Below the pieces are notes generated by a model, which had not been told where the DNA came from, did no database searches, and worked only from the letters and a program-made list of their open reading frames with translations. The position numbers and the translations under genes are program-made. From Candidatus Nanoarchaeia archaeon (lineage in GTDB: Archaea; Nanobdellota; Nanobdellia; Woesearchaeales; ARS49), in the NCBI GenBank assembly GCA_041484255.1, contig JBGPHE010000001.1, positions 6,240 through 70,239 of the forward strand: a stretch of DNA of 64,000 nucleotides, given 5' to 3'. Below, piece after piece: positions 23,146 through 64,000 of this stretch (position 1 is its first letter; each line of letters starts with the position of its first letter).

Positions 23146-23198
23146 ATGCACGGCAGAATGGCGAAAGGTTTTTATAGGTTCGTGACAGGCAGAAGGTA

Positions 23199-23513: not shown

Positions 23514-23570
23514 CCATTCTGTTAACCTATTTAACAAAAGAGCCTTTTCGTTCAAGGTAACACCACAAAC

Positions 23571-23578
23571 CTTATATA
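23571..23578 (+). promoter_or_regulatory. TATA box CTTATATA, candidate promoter of the giant-gene operon (small ORF 23627 plus genes 1-3)
   Basis: 49 bp upstream of the GTG at 23627. Followed by the inverted repeat 23584-23604. Confidence 0.45.
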
Positions 23579-23583
23579 CCTCT

Positions 23584-23604
23584 AATGTTAGTCTAACTAA
23601 CATT
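23584..23604. promoter_or_regulatory. Perfect 9-bp inverted repeat AATGTTAGT-cta-ACTAACATT at the predicted transcription start of the giant operon
   Basis: Seen directly in the sequence. Centred about 20 bp downstream of the TATA. Confidence 0.4.
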
Positions 23605-23626
23605 CGCATCGTCGGGGACAACAAGA

Positions 23627-23917
23627 GTGAAAAAAGAGGGTGTTGAGAGTAAAGAGTACGAGAAATTCATACCGAGAGTCATCTTCACCTACTCGACGGA
23701 GCATCTTCTCAAGAAAGACAAGGTCAGATTCTATTACGCGCTGAAGGGCCGCGACGGAAAAACCGGCATCGTCAAGCGCTGCGCCATCGAACAGCTCGGC
23801 CGCACCGTGCTTCTCGTCCCGACGAAACACGCGGCAGATGTCGATGAATTCCTGAAGTACTGGAAGTGCGAATTCCAGCAGCGCCGCGTGCTCGTCGAGC
23901 CGGGAGTGGGCAAATGA
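23627..23917 (+). CDS. Small basic protein (96 aa) heading the giant-gene operon; GTG start, no internal Met
   Basis: ORF with GTG start 49 bp after TATA 23571-23578. Its TGA overlaps the ATG of giant gene 1 (ATGA at 23914-23917). Confidence 0.4.
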   Translation: MKKEGVESKEYEKFIPRVIFTYSTEHLLKKDKVRFYYALKGRDGKTGIVKRCAIEQLGRTVLLVPTKHAADVDEFLKYWKCEFQQRRVLVEPGVGK

Positions 23918-51700: not shown

Positions 51701-53535
51701 ATGTCTCAATCACGAAGACGGACACGCCTGACCCCGTCAACACCAGCCAAAACCTGACGTATCAAATTAACGTGACGAGCACGGGCAACGGCACGGCGTT
51801 CAATGTGACCGTGAACGACACGTATCCGAATGAAGTCATCTTCCTGACTGCCCAGCCGTCGCCGAGCGTTGGCAACAACACGTTCACCCTGGGCAATTTG
51901 ACGCCGGGAACGGTCCGCAGCATCAACATCACCCTGCTGGTGCTCAACATCAGCAACAGCACGCTCATCAACAACACTGCGAATGTGACCTTCCAGAACG
52001 AATCCAGCGGATTGTTCAGCAGAATCGCGAACACCAGCACGACAGTGCAGAACATCACCATCATCCCGCTGTTCAACCTGAGCAATGTCAGCATTACGAA
52101 GACTGACTCACCAGACCCTGTGAACACGAGCCAGAACCTCACTTACCAGATCAACATCACGACCTCAGGCAATGGCACGTCGTTCAATATCACTGTCAAT
52201 GACACCTACCCCAACGAAGTCATTTTTGTGAGCGCACAGCCGTCGCCGACCGTCGGCAACAACACATTCCTGCTCGGCAACCTGACTGCGGGAATCACAC
52301 GCAGCATCAACATCACTGTGATGGTGCTGAATATCAGCAACAGCACCGTCATCAACAACACCGCAAATGTGACCTTCCAGAACGAGACGAGCGGATTGTT
52401 CAGCAGAATCGCGACCGCGAGCACGACGGTGCAGAACTTCAGCATCTTCCAGCTCTTCAACACAAGCAACATCAACATCACCAAGACCGACACACCCGAC
52501 CCGGTTGAGAACGGCACGCAACTGAACTACACCATTGTCGTCAATGTCACGGGCAATGGCACGTCGTTCAATACGACAGTGGTAGACACCTATCCTAATG
52601 AAATTGTCTTCACCAGCGCTCAGCCCACGCCGAGTTCAGGTAATAACACGTTCATCCTGGGCAATTTGACGCCAGGAACAGTCATCCGCATCAACATCAC
52701 GGTGAATGTGATGCAAGTAGTCAACGGAACAGTCATCAACAACACTGCGAATGTCACATTCCAGAACGAATCCAGCGGACTGTTCAGCAGGATTGCGAAC
52801 ACGAGCACAACCGTGCAGAACGTAAGCCCTGCGCCAGTGCAGAACATCCAGGTCGGAGGCGGCGGCTACCGCACGCCTACAATTGGCGGAGTGATCCCTG
52901 CGCAGCCAGTACCACCCGCAGTACCTCCTGCAGTTCAGTCGCCGCAGGCCTGCATTGAGAACTGGGTGTGCGAAGGCTGGGGACCGTGCACGGACGGCAA
53001 GCAGACGCGCCTGTGCGAAGACCAGAGCTCCTGCGGAACCGTAGCGCGCAAGCCTTCAACAGAGTTTGACTGCGGTGAAACGCCGCAGCCGGCTTCAGTT
53101 GCTGTAGAAACGCCAGCAGAAGTGCCTGCTTCCGAGCAGCCGATCTCGCTGCCGACAGTCGCAGGCACAAGTCAGGCAATAACGCAGCGTTTGCAGTCAG
53201 TCAGCGCGCTGCCGTGGACGTGGATACTCATCGGTTTCATTGTCCTAGGCGTGCTTGTCACGCTGGGCTTCTCCTATCCGCGCGGACGAAGCGACGAGCC
53301 GCCGCAAATGCCCAAGCCAGTGATGGAAGTGCGCGCTCCGCCGCGTCGGGAAGCGCCAAAAGCGCAGCCAAAGCCTGTTGAAAAGCCCTTGCCGAAGCTT
53401 CCCGTCATCGCGCCTGCCAAGATGGACCACGAACAGCTCCACGAGACTGACGTGCAGGCCAAGCAGCGCATGAAGGAGCTCGACGAGCGCCTGAAGAAGC
53501 TCGAACGCACGCTCAGCAGGCACAGAAAGCGCTGA
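36739..53535 (+). CDS. Giant surface protein 3 (5598 aa): signal anchor, He_PIG/cadherin-like Ig domain, beta-helix, DUF11, 5 Gly-rich 300-aa repeats, 4 LamG-like repeat units, 8 more DUF11 units, six-Cys stalk module, TM, coiled basic tail
   Basis: Single 16.8 kb open frame. First ATG at 36739, 7 nt after the gene 2 stop (the ORF-track start at 36736 is a TTG). Confidence 0.8.
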   Translation: MGDMGRNRRGVVSERTLIGIVLLAGLLGIGVMLWATGIVSFAQQHGVTGSAVASITGLAADDLETQPSFTATPAPNTAPIYRGPASFSTPQDTALTIDLSQYFSDAENDELTFIASSEDVIAVAIDGNALTLTPAAGFAGERSLTVIASDGVNLARTPVKIVVEGTQATPPAPQQEAPAPVEQPPATNESAANETPFNTQEEEFTNPVFNTQVTSISACTNISTPGEYALSTDLSRNITCIVIQTDNVSFSCAGHTITWDTQGLRNISGFTSFISAININKSGRTLFNVTVRDCRLIDGTVGGFNDHAIVLQDTNDSLIFNNTLVASGETSLGIEIVRTGNINISSNRINASSFGGAQAIANAIQFNLFSNNVSISDNDIRGFLSGSGIRTVGVMVDATSNPHDVEVVGNSITVNSTGGSATSTGMNGVTGFGTFLNATNNDVQAFGSGPSGVLANGAFFNRILARGSTAEGLRVGELADSNNITVNGSTTGALVGFNGNSTYSNNRLIATGSWIYTSLNGNTTFINTTFVNANGTLLFYNFYIDDVVIVQQSDLNTTINHAYVNSVDFPFLNTSAEIFLQGFNLTNNKPVVDYTDTNHFQGCPDTCTLLETGDNFIRFTVTHFTTYSSSDLVLLLEKSDSTDPVRIGSLFNYSVAVSVLNGNANNVTLTDLYPLEVVFNSSQPDPIDGTNDTFILGNLTENTTFIVNITVQSLTNDSGIVNVTNGTVINNTVNITFQNDTSDVFTLNDTEETTLVEATENFEPLSDCAVINTSSFLTTSVSGTGTCITIGNNSITLECAGNTITYATTGPGSAIFAEDKYNFTVRNCTLVLGDLNRLSLYDSPAINATNTTSGVNNRIDGSSFRLLNYFYQDGLPQQNCGDLSLNDSAFTGNATCTNITFVARARIRVNSTAVSNNSIAFITDNFLLGVRAFINANGTGYPGGADGNANGSGPGGGIDPVSINRGGGGAGHGGIGGQSNVPQGAGGRPYGSSLSPMTPGSGGATGDGGTHTGGNGGGAVSIFGQNVVLNGVISASAGNGSDGTNSGGGGSGGSILVVANTLFGNGSFTARGGFGGNDQSTGIQSGGSGSGGHIAVKFNTSTMNITSAHAPGAENVTALVNLGQPGTVGFLDMDDSILSITEGWRWSSEDAAVWNYTVINLTNAYTHTNESTVNITAVLIVLHNASISKENVTTGIDVNVSLTISAENFVMDPSEIDGAVINITAGNFTLGADSLINATGTGFEGGFNGNSNGSGPGGGIDPVNFNRGGGGAGHGGIGGQSNVVQGAGGRPYGSALNPFTFGSGGGTGESGNHPGGNGGGIVIISASHIILNGTINADGGNGSDGTNSGGGGSGGSINIITDALEGSGNLSARGGYGGWDQSTGIQAGGSGAGGHIIARFNASTFPVTNAHVEQTENVSGLGFFSQPGTLGFIDIDDDILTIVEGWRWTSEDTDVWNFTVINLSNAYTRTNESAVSVDALRFTLENSSITQENLTFGIHVNTTFSVNASVVLMNRSLIVNLTVVNITAADVTILEDAAINLTGTGFEGGFNGNSNGSGPGGGIDPVNFNRGGGGAGHGGIGGRSNVVQGAGGRPYGSSLNPLTLGSGGGTGENGNHPAGNGGGLAIISGTRVNISGTVSVDGGNGTDGTDSGGGGSGGSIFITADSFDGTGGLLSSGGFGGWDQSTGIQSGGSGAGGHIIAQFNTSTFPIANAHVTGTENVSALVFYSQPGTLGFIDIDDDTLTISEGWRWTSEDTDVWNFTVINVTDAFTRSNDSSVTISSGTLTFTNASFTQENLTVDYQLNLTLSAAADTIALNNSLITNLTQVNLSAGNLSVQDDAVIAVVGTGFAGGAISQNGSGPGGGVINDGFTRGTGAAHGGKGGQPAGGIITVARGPYGSTLNPDTLGSGGSGSAQTPGGSGGGVIFISAARASINGTLNADGANGTDGSSVNTGGGGSGGSIAIVAGIFEGTGTITARGGNAGTSFFADASSGGAGGGRIIVRFNTSTFPVAQASVAGGQNGSGSSSTGEPGTLGFLDIDNDILTVVEGWRWQSDDKSIWNFTIINITDALTRANDTTLNFSVGTLVMSNATLRADNASGNITLFINISAANVSLLDGAFILLNGSGFMGGAISQNGSGPGGGVINDGFTRGTGASHAGKGGQAAAGIISVVRGPYGSSLNPDTLGSGGSGSAQTPGGSGGGTIAISAARVSVNGSIIADGVNGTSGSSVNTGGGGSGGSINIITGIFEGNGTLSARGGDAGVSFFADASSGGAGGGRIIVRFNTSAYFLSRAAVTGGENGSGSSYRGQPGTLGFYDVDDNVLTLQEGWRWEQEDEPMSFGNVTTNHTLIFSNATVLVTDTFRANRINWSADENQTTVFNTSRLIIGNSSVNATGRLVFIYSSQFNDSNTLYLQGANFSLENQTVARVSWTEFSANVGNISARTRLQTRRAFVNATGMQGMNTTANITFFGVNFGTPKAQVDLADTGTFVNCVPFINPFCTTQSYADNVFTFNTSHFTTYTVVEGGVSLALTKTDTPDPVFAGNTLSYAILLNLTAQDAFNVTLTDIYPNQTIFVSAEPSPISGTNNTFIVGNLTENDTFIINITVMVRSDTSNGIDINNTANISFQNSTGAMFTANVTESTHVVTSNRPVIAQVILNTTDVTLNDTNQNLTLFIINATDADDNTVWNITDFRRNNISIAVVNYAFETNISTVSASVRDYSTYSANGTLGTAGQNPTWNLSGPLGGAYYFDGNDFITAPATAPTLPLTFEFWVKPATSSPVGIFDTAPGSGGVLRNFPGGVIEWHGGDPTLALDVVGGNWYHIVLIFSFDGARHITYYRNGTFIATANGSASSGFAWTTMRLGDINNGGAGTYTGEMSEFRVYNRSLTASEIEQLYIEGVAGRHPQIITRGNTVAGDVWQACATPNDNNLTGSSGDGTTVCSNNVTINSVQTVAPVIAQVILNSTDPSKNDTSQNLTLFVINATSASNAAVRNITDFRRNNVSIAVVNMPFETNVTSVATGLIRDYGTWGNNGTLGGGTAANAPLWNNSGKVGGDYVFDGSNDFISLTEPPAGSTNLANGSVFAWIRTANAGASYRGIVIKQDAYGMFLLDNVFIIHDWNAAADRTTGINVADGEWHLVGFTFQSGVAGGTKLSIDGQINLTTTLTINSQSEGIVIGAGDNPGTLQFFGGQIDEVMVFNGTLTPTQISQLYQDGIQNKSLDVITADELAAGDVWQGCATPNDNISDGNTTCSNNVTILAVQNGTNVAPTIAQVILNTTNPLLNDTNQNLTVFIINATDANGDAVQNITDFRTNNFSIALLNMPFETNVSSVSARAIRDYSTDEANGTLGNGAAGQAPVWDTQCKVGGCYQFDGTDDYIDVGNESLFDIEFNQPFTLSSWINTTNSANDDFIIAKEENSGNFRGYYYLIDNGAGGVINCLIESSAANLIQVRGSTVVRDGSWHNVVCAYNGSGTAAGVTLYVDGNLESMTTVSDNLAGNTILNNVDVTIGSRASAGVPLQGRVDEAYIFNHSLSAAQVKQLYLDGNASKHVMTIVQPETQAGDIWQACATPNDNLTDGNTTCSNNVTIFAQQNSTYSPPTIAQVILNTTNVSLNDTNQNLTVFIINATSAQNYSVQNITDFRRNATSIAVINLPFETNVTNATLGNGIRDYSSFNNSGTLGGGTQANAPVWNATGQIGGYYDFDGTNDFIQFNDSPSLSIAGSALTMEAWVQTPESAPALFDRIVVKEVNTNADPFIRYALYRTGGTNTVKFGVSTGGAGTIGQVTSNFSIPLNTWFHMVGTYDGANLRLYLNGELNNTVANTGAIATSTTPLVIGGNTEISDEFFNGFIDEVRVYNRTLTPDQIRQDYQAGVAHHQPLIIASNETIAGDIWSACATPNDNISDGNTTCSNNVTITAVQNNTVFNLSNVTLTKLDSPDPVNASSNLSYTIIINATADSPANITLTDTYPAQVIFLDSQPSPLAGTNNTFIVGNLTENNTFIVNITVLVLNVTNGTVINNTANISFHNQTGSQVAVTATQSTTVLAAPNATFNSSNISVVKTDFPDPVENGSQLSYTIAVASNGNGTAYNVTVNDTYPPQVVFDSAQPSPLAGTNNTFILGNLTAGTNILINITVNVSGSVPNNTLINNTVNVTFQNETSDVLSRISTASTQVIVIISTLTGCPVTINETTTLTQRLQSNSSCITFGTDNISLDCSGFSIGGNYSGNGISATNRLNISIRNCFIENFTTNIILQGTNRSTVASNIARNSSQQSMEIQTSAHDSIENNTAQSRTNVGINVTTGINVTLANNNGTSVSGVGISIDTGSVNNTLTNNNGTSTSGQGIFLSSAFNNTLRNNKATTAGAPSALQLSSSNGNLLVNNSGIHTGSGAGIAISVSDYNVLVNNTGIGNQGIALGDINSDWNNFTNNIGQGTSLGASVSASQNNTFVNNTFATNTGTSITLAGLAGTAALNNTFTNTTLLTNGTWFSTNGDGLNNSFTNTVFVSFNGTIRILPTVQLPNATTVDVRQLNVSFNRAHLNSSNLSFLNTTGQITLTGAVSNQPLVDFEDDNTFTLCDASICTVQSFAGGALIFNVTHFTTYSSTAGNSNLTLTKTDSPDPVNASSNLSYQISVNVTSDSPSNITLTDQYPAQVIFLTAQPSPITGTNDTFIIGNLTNGSSFSVNITVLVLNVTNGTVINNTANISFQNASGVTFFATVTENTTVRAQVIQFNLTNVTLTKTDSPDPVNASGILNYTVTVNATADSPANITLTDQYPAQVIFLSAQPSPLAGTNNTFIVGNLTAGQAFIVNISVLVLNVTNGTIINNTANITFTNQTGSVLTLNATQSTTVLAAGNATFNNSNISVTKIDAPDPVNTSAQLNYTINVTSNGNGTSYNVTANDTYPAQVIFLSAQPTPLAGTNNTFILGNLTAGQSVLINVTVLVLNISNGTLINNTVNVTFQNETSAVLSRIASTSTLVINLTFTPLFNASNVSITKTDTPDPVNTSQNLTYQINVTSTGNGTAFNVTVNDTYPNEVIFLTAQPSPSVGNNTFTLGNLTPGTVRSINITLLVLNISNSTLINNTANVTFQNESSGLFSRIANTSTTVQNITIIPLFNLSNVSITKTDSPDPVNTSQNLTYQINITTSGNGTSFNITVNDTYPNEVIFVSAQPSPTVGNNTFLLGNLTAGITRSINITVMVLNISNSTVINNTANVTFQNETSGLFSRIATASTTVQNFSIFQLFNTSNINITKTDTPDPVENGTQLNYTIVVNVTGNGTSFNTTVVDTYPNEIVFTSAQPTPSSGNNTFILGNLTPGTVIRINITVNVMQVVNGTVINNTANVTFQNESSGLFSRIANTSTTVQNVSPAPVQNIQVGGGGYRTPTIGGVIPAQPVPPAVPPAVQSPQACIENWVCEGWGPCTDGKQTRLCEDQSSCGTVARKPSTEFDCGETPQPASVAVETPAEVPASEQPISLPTVAGTSQAITQRLQSVSALPWTWILIGFIVLGVLVTLGFSYPRGRSDEPPQMPKPVMEVRAPPRREAPKAQPKPVEKPLPKLPVIAPAKMDHEQLHETDVQAKQRMKELDERLKKLERTLSRHRKR
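36967..37235 (+). other. He_PIG/cadherin-like Ig domain at the N-terminus of giant protein 3
   Basis: PIYRGPASFSTPQDTALTIDLSQYFSDAENDELTF...LTLTPAAGFAGERSLTVIASDG; paralogous to 54166-54435 in gene 4. Confidence 0.55.
39540..43700 (+). repeat. Five tandem Gly-rich repeats of about 300 aa in gene 3 (periods 906, 909, 906, 837 nt)
   Basis: The anchor NGSGPGGG recurs at 39586, 40492, 41401, 42307, 43144. Each unit is a Gly-rich half (GGGGAGHGGIGGQSNV...GGGGSGGSI...) plus an FNTSTFP...WRWTSEDTDVWNFTVINL half. Confidence 0.75.
44690..48490 (+). repeat. Four LamG-like (Laminin_G_3 / concanavalin-A-like jellyroll) repeat units of about 300 aa in gene 3
   Basis: Unit starts (IAQVILNTT...) at about 44691, 45603, 46546, 47533. 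Core ...YYFDGNDFI....FEFWVKP.......G.WYH......G....YRNG......G.......FRVYNRSLTA.EI.QLY. Confidence 0.65.
50545..52850 (+). repeat. Array of 6 consecutive DUF11-type units in gene 3 (8 after 48.5 kb counting two at about 48510-49260)
   Basis: Same unit consensus as gene 2. Unit starts at about 50560, 50935, 51310, 51700, 52090, 52475. Confidence 0.65.
52951..53073 (+). other. Six-Cys membrane-proximal module, copy in gene 3 (CIENWVCEGWGPCTDGKQTRLCEDQSSCGTVARKPSTEFDC)
   Basis: Same Cys/Trp spacing; followed by a Pro-rich stalk, a TM helix (about 53207-53272) and a coiled basic tail. Confidence 0.7.
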
Positions 53536-53570
53536 TTCTGCCCGTATTCCCCCTATTATATAGTGCGGGC

Positions 53571-53728
53571 ATTCATGAACAATCGTTCATATGAATAGCC
53601 AGATGGAAAAATTCTTAAACTAAACTCCACCTACGACGCGCGGGGTGAGTAAATTGAAGGGGATAGACCACTGTCTACGCTTTACTTCTTTTTGCTCCAC
53701 GATACGTTCATATGAATTTTCATATGAA
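53571..53728. promoter_or_regulatory. Cluster of palindromic motifs in the AT-rich region upstream of the AbrB-like gene and giant gene 4
   Basis: CGTTCATATGAA at 53584-53595 and 53705-53716, TTCATATGAA at 53719-53728, TTCATGAA at 53573-53580. TATA-like TATTATATA at 53555-53563 and TTTATCAAAA at 53759-53768. Confidence 0.45.
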
Positions 53729-53785
53729 AAATCATATTGATTATGTAGGAAATCAGTCGTTTATCAAAAAAGGGGAGAATTAGGG

Positions 53786-53965
53786 GTGGGTTTAACCAGA
53801 AAGCTTCAGCGGACGAAGAAAGATCAGTATACGCTGACGATTCCAAAAGCATTAGTGGAACTGCTCAACCTCAAGGAGCAGGACGAGATCGAGTTTAACC
53901 TTGTTGACGGCAATATCACGCTGAAGAAGTCGGCGCGCAAGCGGGGTGAGAAGGATGCGAAGTAA
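53786..53965 (+). CDS. AbrB/MazE (SpoVT-AbrB, swapped-hairpin) family small DNA-binding protein (59 aa), GTG start
   Basis: Translation VGLTRKLQRTKKDQYTLTIPKALVELLNLKEQDEIEFNLVDGNITLKK... matches the AbrB-type pattern (..tiPk.l.e.l.l..gd.v....dg..i.L.k). GGGGAG lies 8 nt upstream. Under 60 aa, so absent from the ORF track. Overlaps the giant gene 4 start by 11 nt. Confidence 0.5.
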   Translation: MGLTRKLQRTKKDQYTLTIPKALVELLNLKEQDEIEFNLVDGNITLKKSARKRGEKDAK

Positions 53966-56900
53966 GCGCGCAGCCCTCTCGGACAGGCTTCTTATCGGGC
54001 TTGTCCTCCTTGCAGGCGTTTTCGGCATCGCAGTGATGCTCTGGGGCACGGGAATCATTACCGCTCCGCAGTTCGGCAGCGGCGCAGTCACGGGAAGCGT
54101 CGTTGCAACGCCTGCAGCGTCGCCTATCACTGGAATGGACGCAGCAGCAGTCGTCAATGAAGCGCCAATCTATACAGGACCTGCAAGCTTCAGCACGCCG
54201 CAAGATACGGCGCTCACCATTGATTTGTCGCAGTACTTCTCTGACCCCGAGCACGATGAGCTTTCGTTCAGCGCGGCAGAGGAAGACCAGATTGCGGCCG
54301 CGGTTGACGGCAGCCTGCTCACGCTCACGCCCGCAGCAGGCTTCGCAGGCGAACGCACGCTCACTATTGTTGCGTCTGACGGCGTCAATGTCCTGCGCGC
54401 GCCGGTCAAGATTGTCGTGGAAGGCACGGCAGCGCCTGAACAGCCGCCCGCGCCTGCACCGAGCGCGCCGCAGCCAGAACCGCAGCCGCCTGCGCCAGTG
54501 ACGCAAAACGCGACACAGCCGCCTGAAATCACCACAAGCGACTTCACCAATCCAGGATTCACCTCGCAGGACGTCATCACGTCCTGCCCGGCGACGATGA
54601 ACACCAGCACGGTGCTGACGCAGAGCATTACGTCGACGACCACGTGCATCACGTTCGGCGCGGACAACATCGCGCTGGACTGCGCGGGATTCAATATCAC
54701 GTTCGGCACCGGCGGCGGCTCGGCAAACGGCATTGTCGCGCGCAATCGCACCAATGTCACAATCACCGGCTGCACCATCCGCGACACGAACGCGGCAGGA
54801 ACGTTCGGCATCGGCATCAACTTCACGAACGTCAACAACAGCCTTATCGTCAACACCAGCGTATTCACCAACGGCACCAACGACGACTACGGCATCTACT
54901 TTGTCTCGAACGACAGCAACAACACCGTCACCAATGTGAGCGTCTTCGCGCGCGGCACCTCCATCAACAACATCGGCATCTACTTCATCACCAACGCGAA
55001 CAACAATACCGTCGACAACAGCACCATCAGCGGGTTAAGCACGGCGAACGTCAACAACCACGGCGTCAGGATTGAGGCTGCCTCGTCCAACAACCTTTTC
55101 ACGAACAACACGGTCAGGACAAACGGAAGCAGCAGCGACTTCGGCTTCTACCTCTTCAACAACGTCACGCTGAACACTATCGCGAACAACAATATCACCG
55201 CGGACGGCACGAGCGGCACGAATATCGGCATCCGCCTGGAGGGCTCGGGCAACGGCGGCGTCAACAGCAATTTCATCGCGAACAACACGATCCAGACCTT
55301 CCCGCCCGGCGCGAGCAACAACTACGGCATCTACCTCTTCACGTCGGTCTCGAACAACATTGTCACGAACAATACCGTCCGGACGAACGGCACGTCGACG
55401 AATGTCGGCATCCGGCTCGAGAGCACGGCCAGCAACAACACGGTCGCGAACAACAACATCACGGTGCGCGGCACGGGCTCCAACAATAATGGCGTCCTCC
55501 TGACCACCACTGCGAACAACAACACCGTCGCCAACAACACGATTGACATGAGGGCGGGAACCACCACGAACGACGGCATCCTGCTGCAGACCACTGCCAA
55601 CAACAACACCATCAGCAATAACAGCATCATGATTGCGCAGATGTCGTCAACCGACAACCGCGGAATCGTATTGTTTAGCACCGCGTTCAACAACATCCTC
55701 GTCAACAACACCATCAACACGACGGGAACAATCAATAATTACGGCATCGTCCTGAGCACGAACGTCGGCAACACGACCATCGCGAACAACAGCATCCAGA
55801 CGAACGGCAGCAGCATCAATTACGGCATCTGGCTGACGGCGGTTTCAGACAATACCACCATCGCAAACAACCTCATCACGACCGCGGGAGCCGACAGCTA
55901 CGGCATCCGCCTGGACAACAGCCGCGGAAACAACATCACAGGCAACAACATCACCAGCGCGCAGTATGACGGCTTGTTCATCGAAGGAACCGACATCACG
56001 CACTTCACGAACAACACGATCACCAGCTCAAACACCATCAACGGCTCGCCCATCTTCTACTATGGCGGCGCGTACGACTCGCCGGCCTGCCCGAACAACC
56101 AGCTGCTGCCGGTTAACGGAACGGCATCGCACATTGACTTCCTGGGCTGCAACAACGTGACGCTGACCAATTACACTAGTATCGAGGTGCTCACGCTGGT
56201 GAACACCAGCAACATGACCATCACCCAAATCCAGCAGCGCAGCAGCAAGTACGGCATCCGCGTGTTCTTCACGACCGGCCCGAACAACATTTCATTCAGC
56301 AACATCACTGCGTCGAACACGACGGTCTCGGACAATTACGGAGTGTACCTGCTGGTCGCGGGCAACACGACCATCGCAAACAACAACGTCACGACCATAA
56401 GCGCTCTGGCGAACAACCACGGCATCTACCTGCTCACGAACGCGACCAACAATACGGTTGCGAACAACATCGTGAACACGACCGGCACGAGCAACAACAA
56501 CGGCATCCGCGTCGAAGGCAATGGCAACAACAACACCATCGTAAACAATACAGTCAGCACCAAGGGCTCGAGCACGAACAACTACGGCATCGTCCTGTTC
56601 AATACCGCGTCCGGCAACCTGGTGCTGAACAACACGGTCAGGGCGAACGGAAGCAGCAGCGATTACGGCATCTATGTCATCACTGCTGCGAGCAACAACA
56701 CGGTCGCGAACAACAGCATCACCACGGACGGCACGAGCGGCACGAACATCGGCATCCGCATTGAGGGCGCGAACAACGTTCCGGTCGTCAACAACCTCGT
56801 GGCGAACAACCTGATCCAGACCTTCCCACCGGGCGCGAACAGCAACTACGGAATCCAGCTGGTTACGGTCGTATCGAACAATATCATCACGAACAACACC

Positions 56901-59900
56901 ATCCGCACGAACGGCACATCCATAACCCAAGGCATCCGGCTGGAAAGCGTCGTCGGCAACAACACGGTCGCGAACAATAATATCACGGTGAGGGCTTCGG
57001 GAACGCTCAACCACGGCATCTATATGCTCTCCACGGCGAACAACAACACCATCGCCAACAACACGATCGACATCAGGGGCGGCACGACCACCAACAACGG
57101 CATCCGCGTGGAGGCAATCGCCAACAACAACACGCTCAACAACAATACCATCACCATCGCGATGATGTCCGGCAGCGACAACTACGGCATCTATTTGTTT
57201 AACGCCGCGTTCAACAACATCGTCATCAACAATACGGTGAATACCAGCGGAACCACCAGCAACATCGGCATCTTCCTCTTCACCAATGTCGGCAACGCGA
57301 TCATCGCGAACAACAGCATCCAGACCAATGGCAGCAGCATCAATTACGGCATCTATATGGTCACGCAGGCGGACAACACCACCATCGACAACAACATCAT
57401 CACGACTGCGGGCGCCGACAGCTACGGCATCAGGATGGACAACAGCCGCGGCAACAACATCACGCGCAACAATATCACCGGCGCGCAGTATGACGGCTTG
57501 TTCATCGAAGGAACCGACATCACGCACTTCACGAACAACACGATCACCAGCTCAAACACCATCAACGGCTCGCCCATCTTCTATTACGGCGGCGCATACG
57601 ACTCGCCCGCGTGCCCGAACAACCAGCAATTGCTCGTCAACAACACCGCGTCGCACATCGACTTCCTGCGATGCAACAACGTCACGCTGACAAACTACAC
57701 CAGCATGGAGGTCTTGTCGCTCATCAACACGAGCAACATGACGATTACCCAAATCCAGCAGCGCAGCAGCAAGTACGGCATCCGCGTGTTCTTCACGACC
57801 GGCCCGAACACTATCAGCAACAGCAACATCACCGCGTCGAACACGACGGTCACGGACAACTACGGCATCTTCGTGTCGGTCGCAGGCAACACGACCATCA
57901 TCGGCAACAACGTCACCACGATGAGCGCACTGGCGAACAACCACGGCATCTACCTCGTCACCAATGTCACCAACAACACGGTCGCGAACAACATCGTGAA
58001 CACGACCGGCACGAGCAACAACAACGGCATCCGCGTGGAAGGCAATGGCAACAACAACACGATTGTGAATAACTCAGTCAACACGAAGGGCTCGGGCGCG
58101 AGCAACTACGGCATCGTCCTGTTCAACACCGCGTCCGGCAACATGGTGCTGAACAACACCGTCAGGGTGAACGGAAGCAGCAGCAACTTCGCAGTCTATG
58201 TCATCACCCAAGCGAGCAACAACACCATCGCCAACAACAACATCACCGCCGACGGCCCGAGCGGCAGCAACATAGGCATCCGCCTCGAGGGCGCGGGTGG
58301 CAACGTGCCGCCGATCACGAACAACCTCATCGCGAACAACACGATTGCGGTGCTTCCGCAGAGTGCCAGCACCAACTTCGGCATCTATCTTATTACGGTT
58401 GTCTCGAATAATGTTATCACCAACAACACTATCCGCATAAACGGCACGAGCAACGACAGGGGCGTTCAGCTGGATAACACCGTCAGCAACAACACCATCG
58501 CAAACAACAATATCACCATGCGCACGACCGGCAGCGGCAACATCGCAGTCTATATCGTCACCGCCTCGCACAACAACACCGTCGCGAACAACAGCATCAC
58601 GATGTCGGGCTACGCGAACAGCAATCAGGGCATCCGCCTCGAGAGCACAGTCACCAACACCACCATCGCGAACAACACCATCTTCATGAACCAGTCGACG
58701 TCGAGCGACAACTACGGCATCCACTTCTTCAACACCGTCTTCAACAACAGCGTCACCGGCAACACCATCTTTGTCAACGCGACGACGAACGTGTACGGCA
58801 TCCTGCTCCAAAACACTGTCGGCAGCAGCTTCTTCGACAACAACAACCTCGCCACGCAAGGCACGACGCCCGGCTACGGCGTCTTCCTCTTAACCACGTC
58901 CACGGGGTCGTTCTTCAACCGCACAGTCCTGAACAACCCGACAGACTGGCTTGACGCAGACTCCACGTCGGCAGGAAACTTCACCAACACGACATTCCAG
59001 CAGCCGAACGGCAGCATCGCCATCCCCGGCAGGTTCCAATTCAACAACTCGGTGCTCCTGAAGAACAAGCTCAACATCAGCGCGAACAAGGCGTTCCTCA
59101 ACAGCACTGCCTTCGCCATCCTGAACCAGACGGGCATCATCACGCTGAACGGCGTGAACTCCAGCCAGCCGCGGCCCACCGCGGACTTCGATACCGGAAC
59201 GTTCGTCGACTGCCCCGCGACGCAGTGCACCGTCCTGAACTTCGCCAATAACGTCCTCACGTACAACACGACCGGCTTCACGACCTATTCCTGGGCGGAG
59301 AACGGGCTCAATATCTCGTTCACGAAGACCGACAATCCCGACCCCGTGAGCCCGGGCACGACGCTGAATTACACCATCACGTTCATGGTCAACACGGGCA
59401 ACGCGAGCAATGTCACGGTGACCGACCAGTATCCTGCACAAGTTATCTTCCTCAGCGCGCAGCCGTCGCCGCTCGCGGGAACGAACGACACGTTCATCGT
59501 CGGCAACCTCACGAACGGGACGAGCTTCAGCGTCAACATCAGCACGCAGGTGCTCGGCAATGCCGCGGGCCTGCGCCTCAACAACACCGCGAATGCCTCA
59601 TTCCAGAACGAGACCGGCGCGGCGCGCACGGTGAACGTGACCGAGGCCACCACCGTCCTCTCCATACCGACCATTGCGCAGGTCATCCTGAACACCACCA
59701 ACCCGCTCACGAACGACACCAACCAGAACCTGACCCTGTTCATCATCAACTCCTCCGATCCGGATAATGACATCACCAGGAACATCACCGACTGGCGCAG
59801 GAACGGCACGAGCATCGCGGTGACGAACTTCCCGTTCGAGACCAACACGAGCAGCACCGCCTCGAGCGCCATCCGCGACTACAGCACGTACCGGGCGAAC

Positions 59901-62900
59901 GCCACGCTGGGCTCGGGCGCGCAGACGCCGACCTGGAACCTCTCCGGACCGCTGGGCGGCGCGTACAGCTTTGACGGCAATGACTTCCTGACCTCTCCGA
60001 CTCCCACGCCCACCCTGCCGCTGACGTTCGAGTTCTGGGTGAAGCCCGCCACGAGCACGCCGGTCGGCATCTTCGACACCGCGCCGAACGTGGCTGCCGT
60101 GCTCCGCAACTTCCCCGGCGGCTCGGTCGAATGGCACAGCGGCGACCCGTCGGTCAGCCTCGGCCTGACCGCAGGCGCGTGGCAGCACTTGGTCCTGATT
60201 TTCAGCTTCGACACCAACCGCCACATCACGTACTACCGCAACGGCGTGCTGAACCTGACCGCGAACGGCAGCGCGAGCAGCGGCTTTGCGTGGAGCAACC
60301 CCATCCGCTTCGGCGACATCAACAACGGCGGCGCGGGAACGTACACCGGCGAAATAAGCGAGATCCGCATCTACAACCGCTCGCTCACGGCGTCGGAAGT
60401 GCAGAAACTCTACGTGGAAGGCAATGCGAGCATCTACCCGCTCACGATAACGGGCGGCAACACCATCGCCGGCGACAACTGGAGCGCGTGCGCGACGCCG
60501 AACGACAACAACCTCACCGGCTCATTCGGCGATGGCACGACCGTGTGCAGCGGCACCGTGACCATCAATGCCGTGCAGAACGCGAGCTACAGCTCGCCGG
60601 TCATCGCGCAGGTCATCCTGAACACGACCACTGTCGCGCTGAACGACACCAACCAGAACCTGACGCTGTTCATCATCAATGAGACCAGCGCGACCAACCT
60701 CGCGGTGCAGAACATCACGGACTGGCGGCTGTTCAACAGCAGCGTTTATACAAACAATGGCAGCATCGCATTCCTGAACCTGCCCTTTGAGACCAACCAG
60801 AGCGGCAACGTGACCGCAGGAGCCATCCGCGACTACAGCACGTTCGGCAGCAACGCGACGCTGGGCGACGGAAGCGCAGCCGCGGCCCCTGTCTGGAACA
60901 ACACCGACCGCATTGGCGGCGCGTACCGCTTTGACGGCAGCAACGACTTCATCACCGTTCCGGACAGCCCGCTCTGGGCATACGGCACGAGGAACTTCAC
61001 CATTGACCTGTGGGTGAACTTCAACGCGGTCAACGGCGGCGGCTTCTCGAGCATCCCGAACGTGTTTATCGCGCAGGATGACGGCGGCGGAGCCACCAAC
61101 AAGTGGATTTTCTCGCTCGGCGGCGGCGTGCTCAACCTACACATCAACAACCCAGGCCAAGGCGTGAGCGTCTTCCTCGCGCAGGCGCCGTTCTCGCCCG
61201 TGCTCAACCAATGGTACCACATCGCAATCCGCAGGGACGCGACGAATTTCACCACGTTCATCAACGGCACGGCTGCCGCGTCGGAAGTGAACACCGTCGC
61301 AGTACCTGACGCGAGCGCCAAGGTCACCATCGGCGAGTCCGAGGGCACCGGCTTCATCAACGCCGAGCTGGACGAAGTCCACATCTGGAACCGCTCGCTC
61401 ACCGACGCCCAGATCGCGGACATTTTCCGCGAGGGCAATGCCACGAACAAGCACCGCATCCAGACATTCATCAGCAACGAGACGCGCGCCGGCGACATAT
61501 GGCAGTCCTGCGTGACGCCGAATGACAACATCACGGACGGCAACACGACGTGCAGCAACAACGTGACCGTCAACGCAGTACAGAACGCGAGCAATGTCGC
61601 CCCTGCTATCGCGCAGGTCATCCTGAACACGACAAATGTCACGCTGAACGACACCAATCAGAACCTGACCTTATTCATCATCAACGAGACTGCGGGAAGC
61701 AACCCTGCAATTACGAACATCACTGCATGGAGCGTCAACAATAGGTCGTACTTCCTGCTGAACACGCCGTTCGAGGCGACTATCAGCAACAGCACGTTCA
61801 TCAAGGACTACGCGCTGGGCAACAACGGAACGAACTACAGCGGCACGACGCCCACGCTCAACGCAACCACTGGCCCGGACGGCTTTGGCGCGGTCAACTT
61901 CAGCGGCACGACCAACCAGTTCTACAACTTCGGAAGCAATGACGCGTTCCGCCCGCCCGCCAAGATTTCGCTCGAGGCGTGGGTAAATGTCACCACGTTT
62001 GTCGAATTCGCAGGCATCGTGAGCACGGTCTTTGACAGCGGCGCGGTCGAGAGCGGCTACGGCCTGCTGACGCACAGCGGCGGTTCCATTTACTTTGTGC
62101 TCGCTCCCGAAGGCTCAGGCATCGTCTACCTCACCGCACCTGCATCGTCGCTGACCGCGAACCGATGGGCGCACGTGGTCGGCACGTATGACGGCCTCAC
62201 GATGCGTCTCTATGTGGACGGCGTGCAGGTTGCGACCCAGGCGACGAACACGAAGATCGACTACAATCCGCTCAACAACCTGACCATCGGCGCGTACAAG
62301 GACGACGACGAGTTCTACGGATTCAATGGCGTCATCGCGCAGGTGCGCGTCTGGAACGCCACGCTGAACGATTCGCAGGTCGCGCTGCTTAACAACACGC
62401 GGCTGGATAACGCGCGTGTCGACACGCTGGTGGGTGCACAGCTCCTGCAGGGACAGGTCTGGCAGTCGTGCGTCACGCCCAATGACCGCAGCGCGGACGG
62501 CAACGCGACGTGCAGCAACAACCTGACCGTCGCGACGCACACGCTGAACTACACGCAAGTCATCCTCAACACGACCAATGTCGCGACGAACGACACCAAT
62601 CAGAACCTGACGCTCTTCGTCATCAACGCGAGCGATTCCAGCGCGAGCCCCATCCAGAACATCTCGGACTTCCGCCGCAATGGCACGAGCATCGCGTTCG
62701 TGAACCTGCCGTTCGAGACCAACACCAACCTGACGCAGGGCGGCAATATCCGCGACTACAGCTCGTTCAACAACCCCATCTCGCTGGGCAATAGCTCAGT
62801 CTTCGCGACGCCGTTCTGGAACAGCACCGCGAAAGTCGGCGGCGGCTACCGGTTTGACGGAGCGAACGATTTCCTCGAGACAGACAACCTCGACATCGGC

Positions 62901-64000
62901 AACAACTTCACGGTCGAACTGTGGATCTTGCCGCAGAGTGCGGGCGCGTTCCAGCACCTCGTGTCCAATGCGTTCGGCGCATCAAATTACGGCGCGCTCT
63001 ATTTCAATGCAGACCACTTAGATTACTACCAAGGCAGCTCCTCACGAGTGACCACTGCAGGAGGAACCATCGGCCAGAACGCCTGGACGCACGTCGCGCT
63101 TGTGTACAACGGAAGCATAGCAACTCTTTATCTGAACGGAACAACAGCCGGAACGAGCGCGGCGTTCACCACGACGTTCAACAACTCCGTGCGCATCGGC
63201 CAGGCAATCCCCTTCGAGTCCGCATACTTCACCGGCTTCATGGACGAGGTGAAGATCTACAACCGCGCATTGAGCGTCGAGCAGATCCGTCAGGACTTCG
63301 TGCTCGGCAACGCGAGCCTGCGCTCGACCGTCATCGCGCGCAATGAGACCATCGCAGGGGACATCTGGACTGCGTGCGCGACGCCGAACGACAACTTTAC
63401 CGATGGCGGCACGTTCTGCAGCAATAACGTGACCATCAATCCAGTGCAGAACGTGACCGTGAACAATAGCGCCCCATCCATCGCGCAGGTCATCCTGAAC
63501 ACGACGAACGTCTCAAGCAATGACACCAACCAGAACCTGACTGTCTTCATCATCAACGCGACCGATGTGGACAATGACGTCGTGCAGAATATCACGGACT
63601 TCCGCAGGAACAACCTCAGCATCGCCATCATCAACTTCCCGTTCGAGACCAACACGAGCAACATAACCAATGCGTCGCTCCGCGACTACAGCACGTTCAA
63701 CAACAACGGCACGCTCGGCGGAGGAGCTGCGGCGTTCGTGCCGCGCTGGAACAACTCCGGCAGGCCGGGCGGCGCGTACGTCTTCGACGGCGTGGACGAT
63801 TATATCAACGTCTCCGACAGCACGTCGCTGGACAGCCTGCAGAACTTCACGCTTGAGTTCTGGCTGAGCCCGTCGCCGACCCAAGCTGCGTCCGCAAACA
63901 TCCTCAGAAAAGAAAGCAGCCCGTTCACGAACGGCTTCGGCATCGAGATGGACGGAACGCCGAACAGCAATACGTACATCGCGGGCTGGAAGGACGGCTC
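53955..64000 (+). CDS. Giant surface protein 4 (more than 3348 aa, 3' end outside window): signal anchor, He_PIG-like domain, about 1400 aa of PbH1 beta-helix coils including a 508-aa tandem duplication, junction module, DUF11, at least 5 LamG-like units
   Basis: Open frame from the ATG at 53955 to the window end with no stop. Absent from the ORF track, presumably because it lacks a stop. N-terminus paralogous to gene 3. Confidence 0.75.
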   Translation, partial: MRSKRAALSDRLLIGLVLLAGVFGIAVMLWGTGIITAPQFGSGAVTGSVVATPAASPITGMDAAAVVNEAPIYTGPASFSTPQDTALTIDLSQYFSDPEHDELSFSAAEEDQIAAAVDGSLLTLTPAAGFAGERTLTIVASDGVNVLRAPVKIVVEGTAAPEQPPAPAPSAPQPEPQPPAPVTQNATQPPEITTSDFTNPGFTSQDVITSCPATMNTSTVLTQSITSTTTCITFGADNIALDCAGFNITFGTGGGSANGIVARNRTNVTITGCTIRDTNAAGTFGIGINFTNVNNSLIVNTSVFTNGTNDDYGIYFVSNDSNNTVTNVSVFARGTSINNIGIYFITNANNNTVDNSTISGLSTANVNNHGVRIEAASSNNLFTNNTVRTNGSSSDFGFYLFNNVTLNTIANNNITADGTSGTNIGIRLEGSGNGGVNSNFIANNTIQTFPPGASNNYGIYLFTSVSNNIVTNNTVRTNGTSTNVGIRLESTASNNTVANNNITVRGTGSNNNGVLLTTTANNNTVANNTIDMRAGTTTNDGILLQTTANNNTISNNSIMIAQMSSTDNRGIVLFSTAFNNILVNNTINTTGTINNYGIVLSTNVGNTTIANNSIQTNGSSINYGIWLTAVSDNTTIANNLITTAGADSYGIRLDNSRGNNITGNNITSAQYDGLFIEGTDITHFTNNTITSSNTINGSPIFYYGGAYDSPACPNNQLLPVNGTASHIDFLGCNNVTLTNYTSIEVLTLVNTSNMTITQIQQRSSKYGIRVFFTTGPNNISFSNITASNTTVSDNYGVYLLVAGNTTIANNNVTTISALANNHGIYLLTNATNNTVANNIVNTTGTSNNNGIRVEGNGNNNTIVNNTVSTKGSSTNNYGIVLFNTASGNLVLNNTVRANGSSSDYGIYVITAASNNTVANNSITTDGTSGTNIGIRIEGANNVPVVNNLVANNLIQTFPPGANSNYGIQLVTVVSNNIITNNTIRTNGTSITQGIRLESVVGNNTVANNNITVRASGTLNHGIYMLSTANNNTIANNTIDIRGGTTTNNGIRVEAIANNNTLNNNTITIAMMSGSDNYGIYLFNAAFNNIVINNTVNTSGTTSNIGIFLFTNVGNAIIANNSIQTNGSSINYGIYMVTQADNTTIDNNIITTAGADSYGIRMDNSRGNNITRNNITGAQYDGLFIEGTDITHFTNNTITSSNTINGSPIFYYGGAYDSPACPNNQQLLVNNTASHIDFLRCNNVTLTNYTSMEVLSLINTSNMTITQIQQRSSKYGIRVFFTTGPNTISNSNITASNTTVTDNYGIFVSVAGNTTIIGNNVTTMSALANNHGIYLVTNVTNNTVANNIVNTTGTSNNNGIRVEGNGNNNTIVNNSVNTKGSGASNYGIVLFNTASGNMVLNNTVRVNGSSSNFAVYVITQASNNTIANNNITADGPSGSNIGIRLEGAGGNVPPITNNLIANNTIAVLPQSASTNFGIYLITVVSNNVITNNTIRINGTSNDRGVQLDNTVSNNTIANNNITMRTTGSGNIAVYIVTASHNNTVANNSITMSGYANSNQGIRLESTVTNTTIANNTIFMNQSTSSDNYGIHFFNTVFNNSVTGNTIFVNATTNVYGILLQNTVGSSFFDNNNLATQGTTPGYGVFLLTTSTGSFFNRTVLNNPTDWLDADSTSAGNFTNTTFQQPNGSIAIPGRFQFNNSVLLKNKLNISANKAFLNSTAFAILNQTGIITLNGVNSSQPRPTADFDTGTFVDCPATQCTVLNFANNVLTYNTTGFTTYSWAENGLNISFTKTDNPDPVSPGTTLNYTITFMVNTGNASNVTVTDQYPAQVIFLSAQPSPLAGTNDTFIVGNLTNGTSFSVNISTQVLGNAAGLRLNNTANASFQNETGAARTVNVTEATTVLSIPTIAQVILNTTNPLTNDTNQNLTLFIINSSDPDNDITRNITDWRRNGTSIAVTNFPFETNTSSTASSAIRDYSTYRANATLGSGAQTPTWNLSGPLGGAYSFDGNDFLTSPTPTPTLPLTFEFWVKPATSTPVGIFDTAPNVAAVLRNFPGGSVEWHSGDPSVSLGLTAGAWQHLVLIFSFDTNRHITYYRNGVLNLTANGSASSGFAWSNPIRFGDINNGGAGTYTGEISEIRIYNRSLTASEVQKLYVEGNASIYPLTITGGNTIAGDNWSACATPNDNNLTGSFGDGTTVCSGTVTINAVQNASYSSPVIAQVILNTTTVALNDTNQNLTLFIINETSATNLAVQNITDWRLFNSSVYTNNGSIAFLNLPFETNQSGNVTAGAIRDYSTFGSNATLGDGSAAAAPVWNNTDRIGGAYRFDGSNDFITVPDSPLWAYGTRNFTIDLWVNFNAVNGGGFSSIPNVFIAQDDGGGATNKWIFSLGGGVLNLHINNPGQGVSVFLAQAPFSPVLNQWYHIAIRRDATNFTTFINGTAAASEVNTVAVPDASAKVTIGESEGTGFINAELDEVHIWNRSLTDAQIADIFREGNATNKHRIQTFISNETRAGDIWQSCVTPNDNITDGNTTCSNNVTVNAVQNASNVAPAIAQVILNTTNVTLNDTNQNLTLFIINETAGSNPAITNITAWSVNNRSYFLLNTPFEATISNSTFIKDYALGNNGTNYSGTTPTLNATTGPDGFGAVNFSGTTNQFYNFGSNDAFRPPAKISLEAWVNVTTFVEFAGIVSTVFDSGAVESGYGLLTHSGGSIYFVLAPEGSGIVYLTAPASSLTANRWAHVVGTYDGLTMRLYVDGVQVATQATNTKIDYNPLNNLTIGAYKDDDEFYGFNGVIAQVRVWNATLNDSQVALLNNTRLDNARVDTLVGAQLLQGQVWQSCVTPNDRSADGNATCSNNLTVATHTLNYTQVILNTTNVATNDTNQNLTLFVINASDSSASPIQNISDFRRNGTSIAFVNLPFETNTNLTQGGNIRDYSSFNNPISLGNSSVFATPFWNSTAKVGGGYRFDGANDFLETDNLDIGNNFTVELWILPQSAGAFQHLVSNAFGASNYGALYFNADHLDYYQGSSSRVTTAGGTIGQNAWTHVALVYNGSIATLYLNGTTAGTSAAFTTTFNNSVRIGQAIPFESAYFTGFMDEVKIYNRALSVEQIRQDFVLGNASLRSTVIARNETIAGDIWTACATPNDNFTDGGTFCSNNVTINPVQNVTVNNSAPSIAQVILNTTNVSSNDTNQNLTVFIINATDVDNDVVQNITDFRRNNLSIAIINFPFETNTSNITNASLRDYSTFNNNGTLGGGAAAFVPRWNNSGRPGGAYVFDGVDDYINVSDSTSLDSLQNFTLEFWLSPSPTQAASANILRKESSPFTNGFGIEMDGTPNSNTYIAGWKDG
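54166..54435 (+). other. He_PIG/cadherin-like Ig domain at the N-terminus of giant protein 4
   Basis: PIYTGPASFSTPQDTALTIDLSQYFSDPEHDELSF...LTLTPAAGFAGERTLTIVASDG. Confidence 0.55.
55115..58830 (+). repeat. Tandem duplication of a 1524-nt (508-aa) PbH1 beta-helix unit in gene 4: two full copies (55115-56638, 56639-58162) and a diverged third (58163 to about 58830)
   Basis: Near-identical stretch GCGCAGTATGACGGCTTGTTCATCGAAGGAACCGACATCACGCACTTCACGAACAACACG... at 55959 and 57483 (period 1524 nt, in frame), about 95% nt identity over about 680 nt by eye. Unit starts RTNGSSSDFG / RANGSSSDYG / RVNGSSSNFA. Confidence 0.8.
59672..64000 (+). repeat. At least five LamG-like repeat units in gene 4, continuing past the window end
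   Basis: Unit starts at about 59683, 60601, 61607, 62563, 63480, with the same VILNTT...NDTNQNLT.FIIN leader and W..C.TPNDN..DG.T.CSNNVT linker. Confidence 0.65.

Follow-up and report, generated by a model that had tools for sequence, protein, structure and literature searches.

The promoter of the mazEF operon of Escherichia coli contains three adjacent sites for dimers of the MazE antitoxin, of which only one is a perfect AT-rich palindrome (ATATAT), and MazE reads this operator with its N-terminal strand and hairpin (PMC4333400). MraZ, likewise of the AbrB superfamily, is an autoregulator encoded by the first cistron of a long operon (the bacterial dcw operon) and binds four evenly spaced boxes cooperatively (PMC12957436), and the small archaeal protein Sso7c4 has been described as a chromatin-like protein that curves DNA (PMC3159460). 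Here we describe a locus in a 64,000-nucleotide stretch of DNA from a Candidatus Nanoarchaeia archaeon (the window, to which all coordinates without a locus label refer). In this locus a gene for a 59-residue protein with an AbrB/MazE domain (the abrB-like gene) overlaps the start of a gene for a giant surface protein (giant gene 4) and is preceded by a spacer with repeated copies of the palindrome TTCATATGAA. We propose, from comparative sequence analysis, that the small protein acts as a toxin-less MazE-like dedicated autoregulator, most likely a repressor, of the operon formed by its own gene and the giant gene, and we assign this interpretation a rough probability of 0.7.

A small AbrB/MazE-family protein ahead of a giant gene

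The + strand of the window is occupied from 23.9 to 64 kb by four very large genes, whose products comprise, in order, 1,104-1,120 (depending on the start), 3,168, 5,599 and more than 3,472 amino acids (aa). These proteins contain many N-glycosylation sequons and feature beta-helix/NosD, DUF11/CLIPPER and LamG domains. The region under study consists of the 250-bp spacer between giant genes 3 and 4 together with the small open reading frame (ORF) at the end of the spacer, and the upstream neighbour of the abrB-like gene is the 5,599-aa surface protein. The closest relatives of the studied genes are found in metagenome-assembled genomes (MAGs) labelled Candidatus Woesearchaeota, plus one labelled Aenigmatarchaeota. 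The coding features of the region are the following:

53786..53965, + strand: abrB-like gene, GTG start, TAA stop at 53963-53965, 59 aa; a single AbrB/MazE swapped-hairpin domain and a basic C-terminal tail
53955..64000, + strand: giant gene 4; N-terminal membrane anchor or signal, followed by beta-helix/NosD repeats
53772..53777, + strand: Shine-Dalgarno-like GGGGAG, 8 nt 5' of the GTG of the abrB-like gene
53943..53954, + strand: Shine-Dalgarno-like GGGGTGAGAAGG for giant gene 4, identified by inspection of the sequence in the 3'-terminal part of the abrB-like gene

An earlier interpretation made from the letters alone (the sequence-only reading) had singled out this 59-aa ORF by its AbrB/MazE signature and had proposed a comparison with Pfam PF04014. 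The ORF stands as it was quoted, and the protein matches PF04014 (MazE_antitoxin, the SpoVT/AbrB domain) with 33.0 bits (E=5.9e-8), above the gathering cut-off of 24.7, while the match to TIGR01439 (AbrB looped-hinge domain) falls just below its cut-off (26.8 against 28.3 bits). An AlphaFold2 (AF2) model of the monomer, built on 13 homologues, has a beta-beta-alpha-beta-beta topology with strands at residues 8-10, 14-16, 35-40 and 43-48 and a helix at 21-26 (predicted local distance difference test score (pLDDT) of 71). Foldseek comparison of this model with the PDB places MazE (1mvf, 2mrn), the AbrB N-terminal domain (1yfb), C56 of pSSVi, C68 of pSSVx, SpoVT, Sso7c4 and VapB at the top; ranks 1-19 are nearly all of the AbrB superfamily, with best template-modelling scores (normalised to the target) of 0.5-0.7. 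A profile search of PDB sequences retrieved AbrB (1z0r) at E=0.0025. The 59-aa protein is thus a member of the AbrB/MazE fold family.

Homologues fall into 13 clusters in a collection of 5.8 billion proteins, with 63-82% identity and 18 invariant residues in common, and a search of 1.84 billion representative proteins returned 175 at E<1e-3 and only 29 clusters at E<1e-10. By these searches, the protein belongs to a small DPANN-specific subfamily with the signature RKLQRTxKDQYxLTIPK. The N-terminal strand holds the invariant pattern R-x-LQRT-xx-DQY-xx-TIPK, and the conserved residues, located in this strand, are basic or polar. The window protein conforms to the subfamily throughout, as it has all 18 invariant residues, the 11-nt overlap with the next gene and a three-unit array in its promoter. 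No second abrB-like copy was found by tblastn in the window or in any of the fetched loci.

Among the relatives are single chains with two tandem domains (L022, L023, L040 and P0015-P0020) and one with four (P0014), which fits the rule that two AbrB half-barrels make up one DNA-binding unit and suggests that such units sit side by side. Tandem-domain relatives and palindromic sites both agree, if indirectly, with a dimeric unit in which two half-barrels pair. In three of the two-domain loci (L022 5827-6207, L023 5812-6171 and L040) we also observed long 5' leaders of 85 to ~105 nt with GC-rich hairpins between the operator and the start codon.

The position of the small gene is conserved as well. 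The 11-nt overlap with the gene-4 ATG (53955-53957), noted in the sequence-only reading, follows directly from the coordinates, and the public record has the same gene-4 start. In a comparison set of ~40 loci encoding relatives, mostly from Woesearchaeota, a large ORF begins within the small gene in all but two, with an overlap of 4, 8, 11, 17 or 20 nt, and in ~25 distinct loci both the overlap and the promoter motif described below are conserved at the same place. The overlapped ORFs begin with a signal or anchor sequence and encode 800 to more than 4,000 aa, or are shortened by a contig end. Their domains vary among loci (beta-helix, LamG, Ig-like, DUF11, PT repeats), and therefore the regulator is conserved while the surface protein changes. 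Giant gene 4 itself continues past the end of the window and of the contig, and its product matches Beta_helix at E=1e-30 in addition to NosD. The placement of the Shine-Dalgarno-like GGGGTGAGAAGG inside the end of the abrB-like gene is the layout expected for translational coupling, and we infer that the abrB-like gene and giant gene 4 are coupled in this manner. The 8-mer AAAAGAGG, which relates to the Shine-Dalgarno-like GGGGAG, is one of the 8-mers that most upstream regions have in common (8 of 11 loci).

Palindromes and 12-bp-phased arrays in the promoter

The spacer upstream of the abrB-like gene contains the following elements:

53586..53595, no strand: distal TTCATATGAA palindrome, 200 nt 5' of the GTG
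53704..53739, no strand: putative proximal operator array of three 12-bp units, ACGTTCATATGA, ATTTTCATATGA and AAAATCATATTG
53738..53749, + strand: TGATTATGTAGG, a degenerate putative TATA box immediately 3' of the final operator unit, assigned by position
53572..53579, no strand: TTCATGAA, formerly termed a half-variant of the palindrome; the sister strain L002 has TCCCTGAA instead

All three copies of TTCATATGAA in the 64 kb are located in the 250-bp spacer. Shuffling of the whole window yields a mean of 0.03 copies and reached three copies in 0 of 100 shuffles, and a first-order Markov model trained on the spacer itself (GC 0.39) predicts 0.001 copies and gave two or more in none of 100,000 simulations. 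No TTCATATGAA beyond the three known copies emerged from a one-mismatch search of the window, and TCATATGA, the core of the palindrome, is absent from a further 3,220 nt of AT-rich sequence in the window (eleven stretches). Within the window, the palindrome is consequently not at background frequency, with 3 copies observed against 0.001-0.03 expected.

The sequence-only reading had described CG-extended copies (CGTTCATATGAA) at 53584-53595 and 53705-53716 and a further TTCATATGAA at 53719-53728, interpreting them as operator palindromes about 120 bp apart. These coordinates are accurate and the repeated palindromes are real, but the layout is not simply one of sites ~120 bp apart. The proximal array comprises two perfect palindromes (53707-53716 and 53719-53728), which an imperfect third unit (AAAATCATATTG, 53728-53739), overlooked at the time, extends in 12-bp phase. 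The CG extension is not conserved, L002 having AATTCATATGAA in its place. As for the half-variant TTCATGAA, it is present, but at 53572-53579 instead of 53573-53580, and it is probably no operator site because L002 differs there.

The same motif recurs in the promoters of the relatives. Upstream sequence totalling 4,500 nt contains 24 copies of the core TCATATGA, and the 149,676 nt elsewhere in the loci contain a single one. No other 8-mer is as widely shared: 10 of the 11 non-redundant upstream regions possess it (18 copies, compared to 0.09 in simulations). Half-sites of the form [TA]CATA in the same orientation form 42, 29 and 20 pairs at distances of 12, 24 and 36 nt, respectively, and almost none at other distances; simulations lead us to expect ~0.1 pairs per distance. 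Counted over all loci, 48 phased half-site pairs fall in 7.9 kb of upstream sequence and 3 in 220 kb elsewhere. An array typically features a full palindrome at one end followed by 1-6 further units with the consensus WWAWTCATATKW; the longest have seven units (L039) and ten units, arranged as 4, 4 and 2 (L037). The array of the window aligns column for column with those of L002, L007, L025 and L026. Judged by this comparison, the putative operator is a 12-bp-phased array with one or two full palindromes and half-sites beside the TATA box, to which a distal site is an optional addition. The distal palindrome is conserved in L002, has a symmetric variant (AATCATATGATT) at -226 in L007, and finds counterparts at -139 to -280 in L017, L019, L022, L023 and L037-L039.

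A second TTCATATGAA with ATAGT-type repeats is located 5' of an unrelated aminotransferase-like gene in the Aenigmatarchaeota MAG (L023 1-60). It is the sole copy outside these promoters in 150 kb and hints at a slightly larger regulon in that lineage.

Comparison with the sister strain L002 underlines the constraint on the control region relative to its cargo, since nucleotide identity amounts to 55-73% in the giant genes, 91% in the spacer and 98.3% in the abrB-like gene, and all three palindromes are unchanged in L002 despite changes in adjoining bases. The conserved island extends from 53536 to 54260 (L002 9751-10480) and includes, besides the spacer (91%) and the abrB-like gene (98%), the first ~300 nt of gene 4 (82%); the central 125 nt of the spacer (53576-53699) differ by only 2 substitutions. 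Regulatory constraint, a small transcript, or a role as recombination anchor in the exchange of giant-gene cassettes could each account for the island.

Proposed autoregulation and its alternatives

In order to rationalise how the array might act, we compared its position relative to the putative promoter elements between subgroups of loci. In the window-like group, the last unit (consensus ATTCATAGTAA) is located directly 5' of the TATA box (TTTAAATA or TTTATATA), and the window's own TGATTATGTAGG aligns with the boxes of its relatives (TTTAAATAGG, TTTATAAAGG, TTTATATAGG), 34-40 nt before the start codon. In the three other subgroups the array is found 3' of the TATA box, ahead of the start site or start codon. 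A second group, with proteins beginning LAKGITRKLQ, has its palindrome 12-14 nt 3' of the TATA box, where transcription is expected to start; the sites of the two-domain group come ~10 nt after the TATA box; and a marine group features two tandem TATA-plus-operator modules and then a leaderless ATG. Archaeal repressors typically bind at such places, and since all of these positions would obstruct TFB/TBP or polymerase, autorepression is the simplest common reading. The proposal of the sequence-only reading, a dedicated regulator-operator pair for the giant gene, holds as far as the protein family, the predicted fold, the uniqueness of the motif within the window and its conservation in ~25 loci support it; the details of the layout had to be revised, and the link to an upstream operon is not supported (see below).

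We envisage that a homodimer of the 59-aa protein would form one swapped-hairpin barrel recognising TTCATATGAA, and that further dimers would load cooperatively from this nucleation site onto the adjacent 12-bp-phased units. The three-unit array of the window would stop right at the region of the B recognition element (BRE) and TATA box of the promoter driving the abrB-like gene and giant gene 4, so that its occupancy most likely blocks recruitment of TFB/TBP or RNA polymerase and leads to negative autoregulation. For the distal palindrome, located 120 bp upstream, a part in looping or in the control of a second promoter is conceivable. As the product of the first cistron, the regulator would already be available seconds after initiation, whereas completing the transcript of more than 10 kb would take minutes more, and this early synthesis could provide fast feedback limiting the entry of polymerase into a very costly gene.

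Several observations weigh against this interpretation. The link between regulator and motif rests on their co-occurrence; the AF2 model is of moderate confidence and represents a monomer, and the Foldseek E-values are weak (0.02 or higher), as is to be expected of a domain with ~45 residues. The DNA-contacting residues R15, R23 and R24 of AbrB lack positional counterparts in the 59-aa protein when the two are aligned by position, and the N-terminal strand is specific to the family. Synteny has two exceptions, L016, in which another cistron precedes the small gene and a short one comes after it, and L018, with a short downstream ORF. In P0046, a distant relative, the AbrB-like domain is joined to a membrane protein and the promoter palindrome is a different one, and the TATA box of the window is degenerate (GATTATGTA). 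Finally, the sign of regulation is uncertain, because the place of the array, 5' of the TATA box, is one that archaeal activators typically use as well.

This last point is at the heart of the alternative in which the protein is an activator, or activates at low and represses at high concentration, by recruiting TBP/TFB to a weak TATA box. Upstream binding is the usual activator geometry in archaea, and the window-like group, with its array upstream of the TATA box and, in the window, a degenerate box, would suit such a role. In the same group, however, a mere ~6 nt separate the last unit from the TATA box, so that this unit overlies the BRE, the palindrome between TATA box and start site in the other three subgroups is a repressor geometry, and characterised first-cistron regulators of the AbrB/MazE/MraZ type are mostly autorepressors. 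We consider activation unlikely on balance.

Alternatively, the phased TCATA arrays might be bound by another factor or act as structural promoter DNA, with the AbrB-like protein serving the giant protein instead, for example as a module tethered to the membrane or as a chaperone or cytoplasmic partner for the N-terminus of the giant protein. The gene overlap, conserved whatever the cargo, would fit this possibility, as would the natural fusion P0046 (L042 4001-6376, from another archaeon, found in two assemblies), which joins an AbrB-like domain, a transmembrane helix and a 700-aa ectodomain in one chain and resembles a membrane-tethered DNA-binding protein. Yet even the fusion has a palindrome, ATTACTATTAA-tt-TTAATAGTAAT, adjoining the TATA box of its own promoter (L042 3915-4000). 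Moreover, the motif follows the abrB-like gene and not giant genes generally, the other giant-gene operon of the window having a different one; the fold is a DNA-binding fold, with conserved basic and polar residues in the N-terminal strand; and the cytoplasmic N-terminus of the gene-4 protein comprises only ~11 residues. A role of this kind appears improbable to us.

The resemblance to type II toxin-antitoxin modules also deserves scrutiny, because the best Pfam name is MazE_antitoxin, weak matches to PrlF, MazE and Doc-partner models were obtained, and an overlap with the next gene combined with palindromic operators is the classic toxin-antitoxin layout. An antitoxin of the MazE, PrlF or VapB type, orphaned or with an unrecognised toxin, is nevertheless very improbable. 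The overlapped gene encodes a secreted beta-helix/NosD protein and no toxin, a situation repeated in ~25 loci; ~10 basic residues follow the domain where a C-terminal toxin-binding region would be expected; and conservation and synteny are stable as opposed to patchy. With NCBIfam equivalog scores far under their cut-offs (PrlF 21.7 against 125, MazE 18.8 against 113) and no toxin gene (MazF/PemK, YhaV, PIN, Doc) adjacent, we reject toxin-antitoxin identity. A role in general chromatin structure akin to that of Sso7c4, with the palindromes as incidental AT-rich promoter sequence, deserves scarcely any credence: the protein is small, basic and restricted to an AbrB domain like Sso7c4 (Foldseek rank 19; PMC3159460), but the motif statistics and the exact 12-bp phasing are confined to its own promoter, synteny is fixed, and the family is tiny.

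Beyond simple autorepression, a bolder extension can be formulated, which we regard as doubtful. Promoter, array and abrB-like gene together may represent a conserved, portable 'expression head' placed by DPANN archaea before fast-evolving giant surface or adhesin genes, in which the regulator would polymerise along the 12-bp-phased arrays, with a switching threshold dependent on array length (2 to 7 or more units). The activity of the regulator might in addition respond to how the giant protein is exported or assembled, as the membrane-anchored fusion P0046 hints. Transcription would then receive feedback from the biogenesis of the surface protein, or host-interaction genes would be under a phase-like on/off switch.

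Further elements of the spacer may bear on its transcription:

53554..53563, + strand: TATA-like TATTATATAG, 23 nt 5' of the distal palindrome, conserved in L002
53646..53697, + strand: hairpin and T-rich tract CTTCTTTTTGCTCC, within the 125-nt block with 2 substitutions between the strains

The TATA-like TATTATATAG may represent a second, distal promoter with its start site on the distal palindrome. The block CCCCCTATTATATAGTG is unchanged in L002 though its flanks differ, and tandem promoter-plus-operator modules also occur in L015, L018 and L031. The hairpin and T-tract probably serve to terminate giant gene 3. When folded, the conserved 115-nt block of the spacer has a minimum free energy of -25.5 kcal/mol on the + strand (z=-1.7, a modest value) and z=+0.3 on the - strand; a z-score of -1.7 is too weak to claim a small RNA, and a scan of 53400-54100 against Rfam at E<=1 returned no family match. 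An upstream ORF of 29 codons (TTG at 53654, behind a Shine-Dalgarno-like GGGGTGA) was not accepted as a conserved coding feature because its counterparts in L007, L011 and L014 differ in frame and length, as judged by eye. The 10-mer GCGGGGTGAG occurs twice, at 53640-53649, ahead of this ORF, and at 53941-53950, in the Shine-Dalgarno region of gene 4, and GGGGGTG-like motifs lie ~100-130 nt 5' of the abrB-like gene in several relatives, with no conserved reading frame demonstrable.

A second giant-gene operon and comparison with described regulators

The promoters of the window contain TATA-like boxes, and another of them heads the first of the giant genes, downstream of the Rpr2 (RNase P) gene, which ends at 23513:

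23627-23917, + strand: 96-aa ORF; promoter at 23520-23610 with a conserved TATA box, TGTTA-N7-TAACA, and GTTAACC..TTAACA at 23522-23537

An inverted repeat at 23584-23604 (AATGTTAGT-cta-ACTAACATT), located right after a TTATATA box, had been suggested to place this upstream operon under the control of the AbrB-like protein. Its sequence is unrelated to TTCATATGAA, and its conserved core, TGTTA-N7-TAACA (23586-23602), recurs together with an upstream GTTAAC-type element before homologues of the 96-aa gene in L044, L046 and L047. The one-mismatch search of the window revealed no TTCATATGAA-like site near this promoter. The repeat thus belongs to a different motif and heads a different small-gene/giant-gene operon, and we reject a shared operator; with different motifs and no TTCATATGAA-like site near the 96-aa gene, the two giant-gene operons have separate control regions.

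The 96-aa ORF shares 4 nt with giant gene 1, whose ATG is at 23914, and its homologues elsewhere likewise overlap large or giant genes. The family is large and highly conserved in DPANN, with more than 500 clusters and ~50-90% identity among the matches listed. The protein matches no Pfam or NCBIfam model, and its AF2 model, although confident (pLDDT 88) and ferredoxin-like, produced only weak matches of the Cas2/VapD/UreE type; with no family match and no clear structural relative, we did not retain the idea that it is a recognisable transcription factor. Two Woesearchaeota contigs (L044 and L046) have the gene order GAPDH, PGK, one opposite-strand gene, Rpr2, 96-aa gene and giant genes. This order is confirmed in the window (20700-27228) from Rpr2 onward, where the locus is syntenic and the giant genes vary, and L044 has the abrB-like gene and a giant gene further downstream.

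To our knowledge, almost nothing is known about gene regulation in DPANN archaea. The giant surface proteins of this group are prime candidates for host-cell attachment, and the giant surface or adhesin proteins considered here probably mediate host contact. For these genes the locus supplies a conserved and specific candidate regulator, a defined putative site (TTCATATGAA with 12-bp-phased TCATA arrays) and a clear target, the giant gene, and it points to a toxin-less use of the MazE/AbrB autoregulatory layout. Small leader cistrons in translational coupling with giant genes appear to be a recurring arrangement, of which the unrelated 96-aa family is a second case in the window. For annotators, the motif could serve as a simple marker of abrB-giant gene operons.

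The closest comparison is with E. coli MazE and Rickettsia VapB2. They share with the 59-aa protein the PF04014 domain, are among its best structural matches and are likewise encoded by a first gene that overlaps the next. The mazEF operator and the putative operator of the window both have three adjacent units, of which one is perfect in mazEF and two, with a CATATG core, are perfect here. In contrast to both antitoxin systems, the window protein has neither a toxin partner nor a C-terminal toxin-binding tail, a giant surface protein lies downstream, the promoter is of the archaeal TATA/BRE type, and the arrays reach 7 units in strict 12-bp phase.

MraZ resembles the present case in having two AbrB-like half-domains per chain, as do the two-domain relatives of the 59-aa protein. 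It differs in its boxes, which are GTG(G/T) with 6-nt spacers and hence a 10-bp period, in its octamer or dodecamer rings, which form via extra helices that the 59-aa protein lacks, and in its unrelated cargo genes. The two proteins have no sequence match, no MraZ family is found among the Pfam and NCBIfam matches of the 59-aa protein, and the context is one of giant surface proteins instead of the dcw cluster. We therefore do not assign the protein to the MraZ family, and the resemblance is functional only.

The N-terminal domains of Bacillus AbrB, Abh and SpoVT have the same fold and are the best sequence-profile matches among solved structures. Bacillus AbrB, however, regulates globally, recognises DNA with loose sequence specificity and has a C-terminal domain for tetramerisation, whereas the 59-aa protein consists of the DNA-binding domain only and has a sharply defined putative site at a single promoter. 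Sso7c4 and the C68 (pSSVx) and C56 (pSSVi) proteins of Sulfolobus plasmid-viruses, which are among the structural matches, are small archaeal dimers comprising the domain alone, but they share only 17-33% identity with the 59-aa protein and none has been reported with 12-bp-phased arrays or coupling to a giant gene. Among the papers searched, none links AbrB-type proteins with Woesearchaeota or with DPANN giant genes. Considered against these systems, the abrB-giant gene operon appears to represent a new, DPANN-specific variant of the AbrB/MazE first-cistron autoregulator, distinguished by an unusually regular operator architecture and an unusual class of target.

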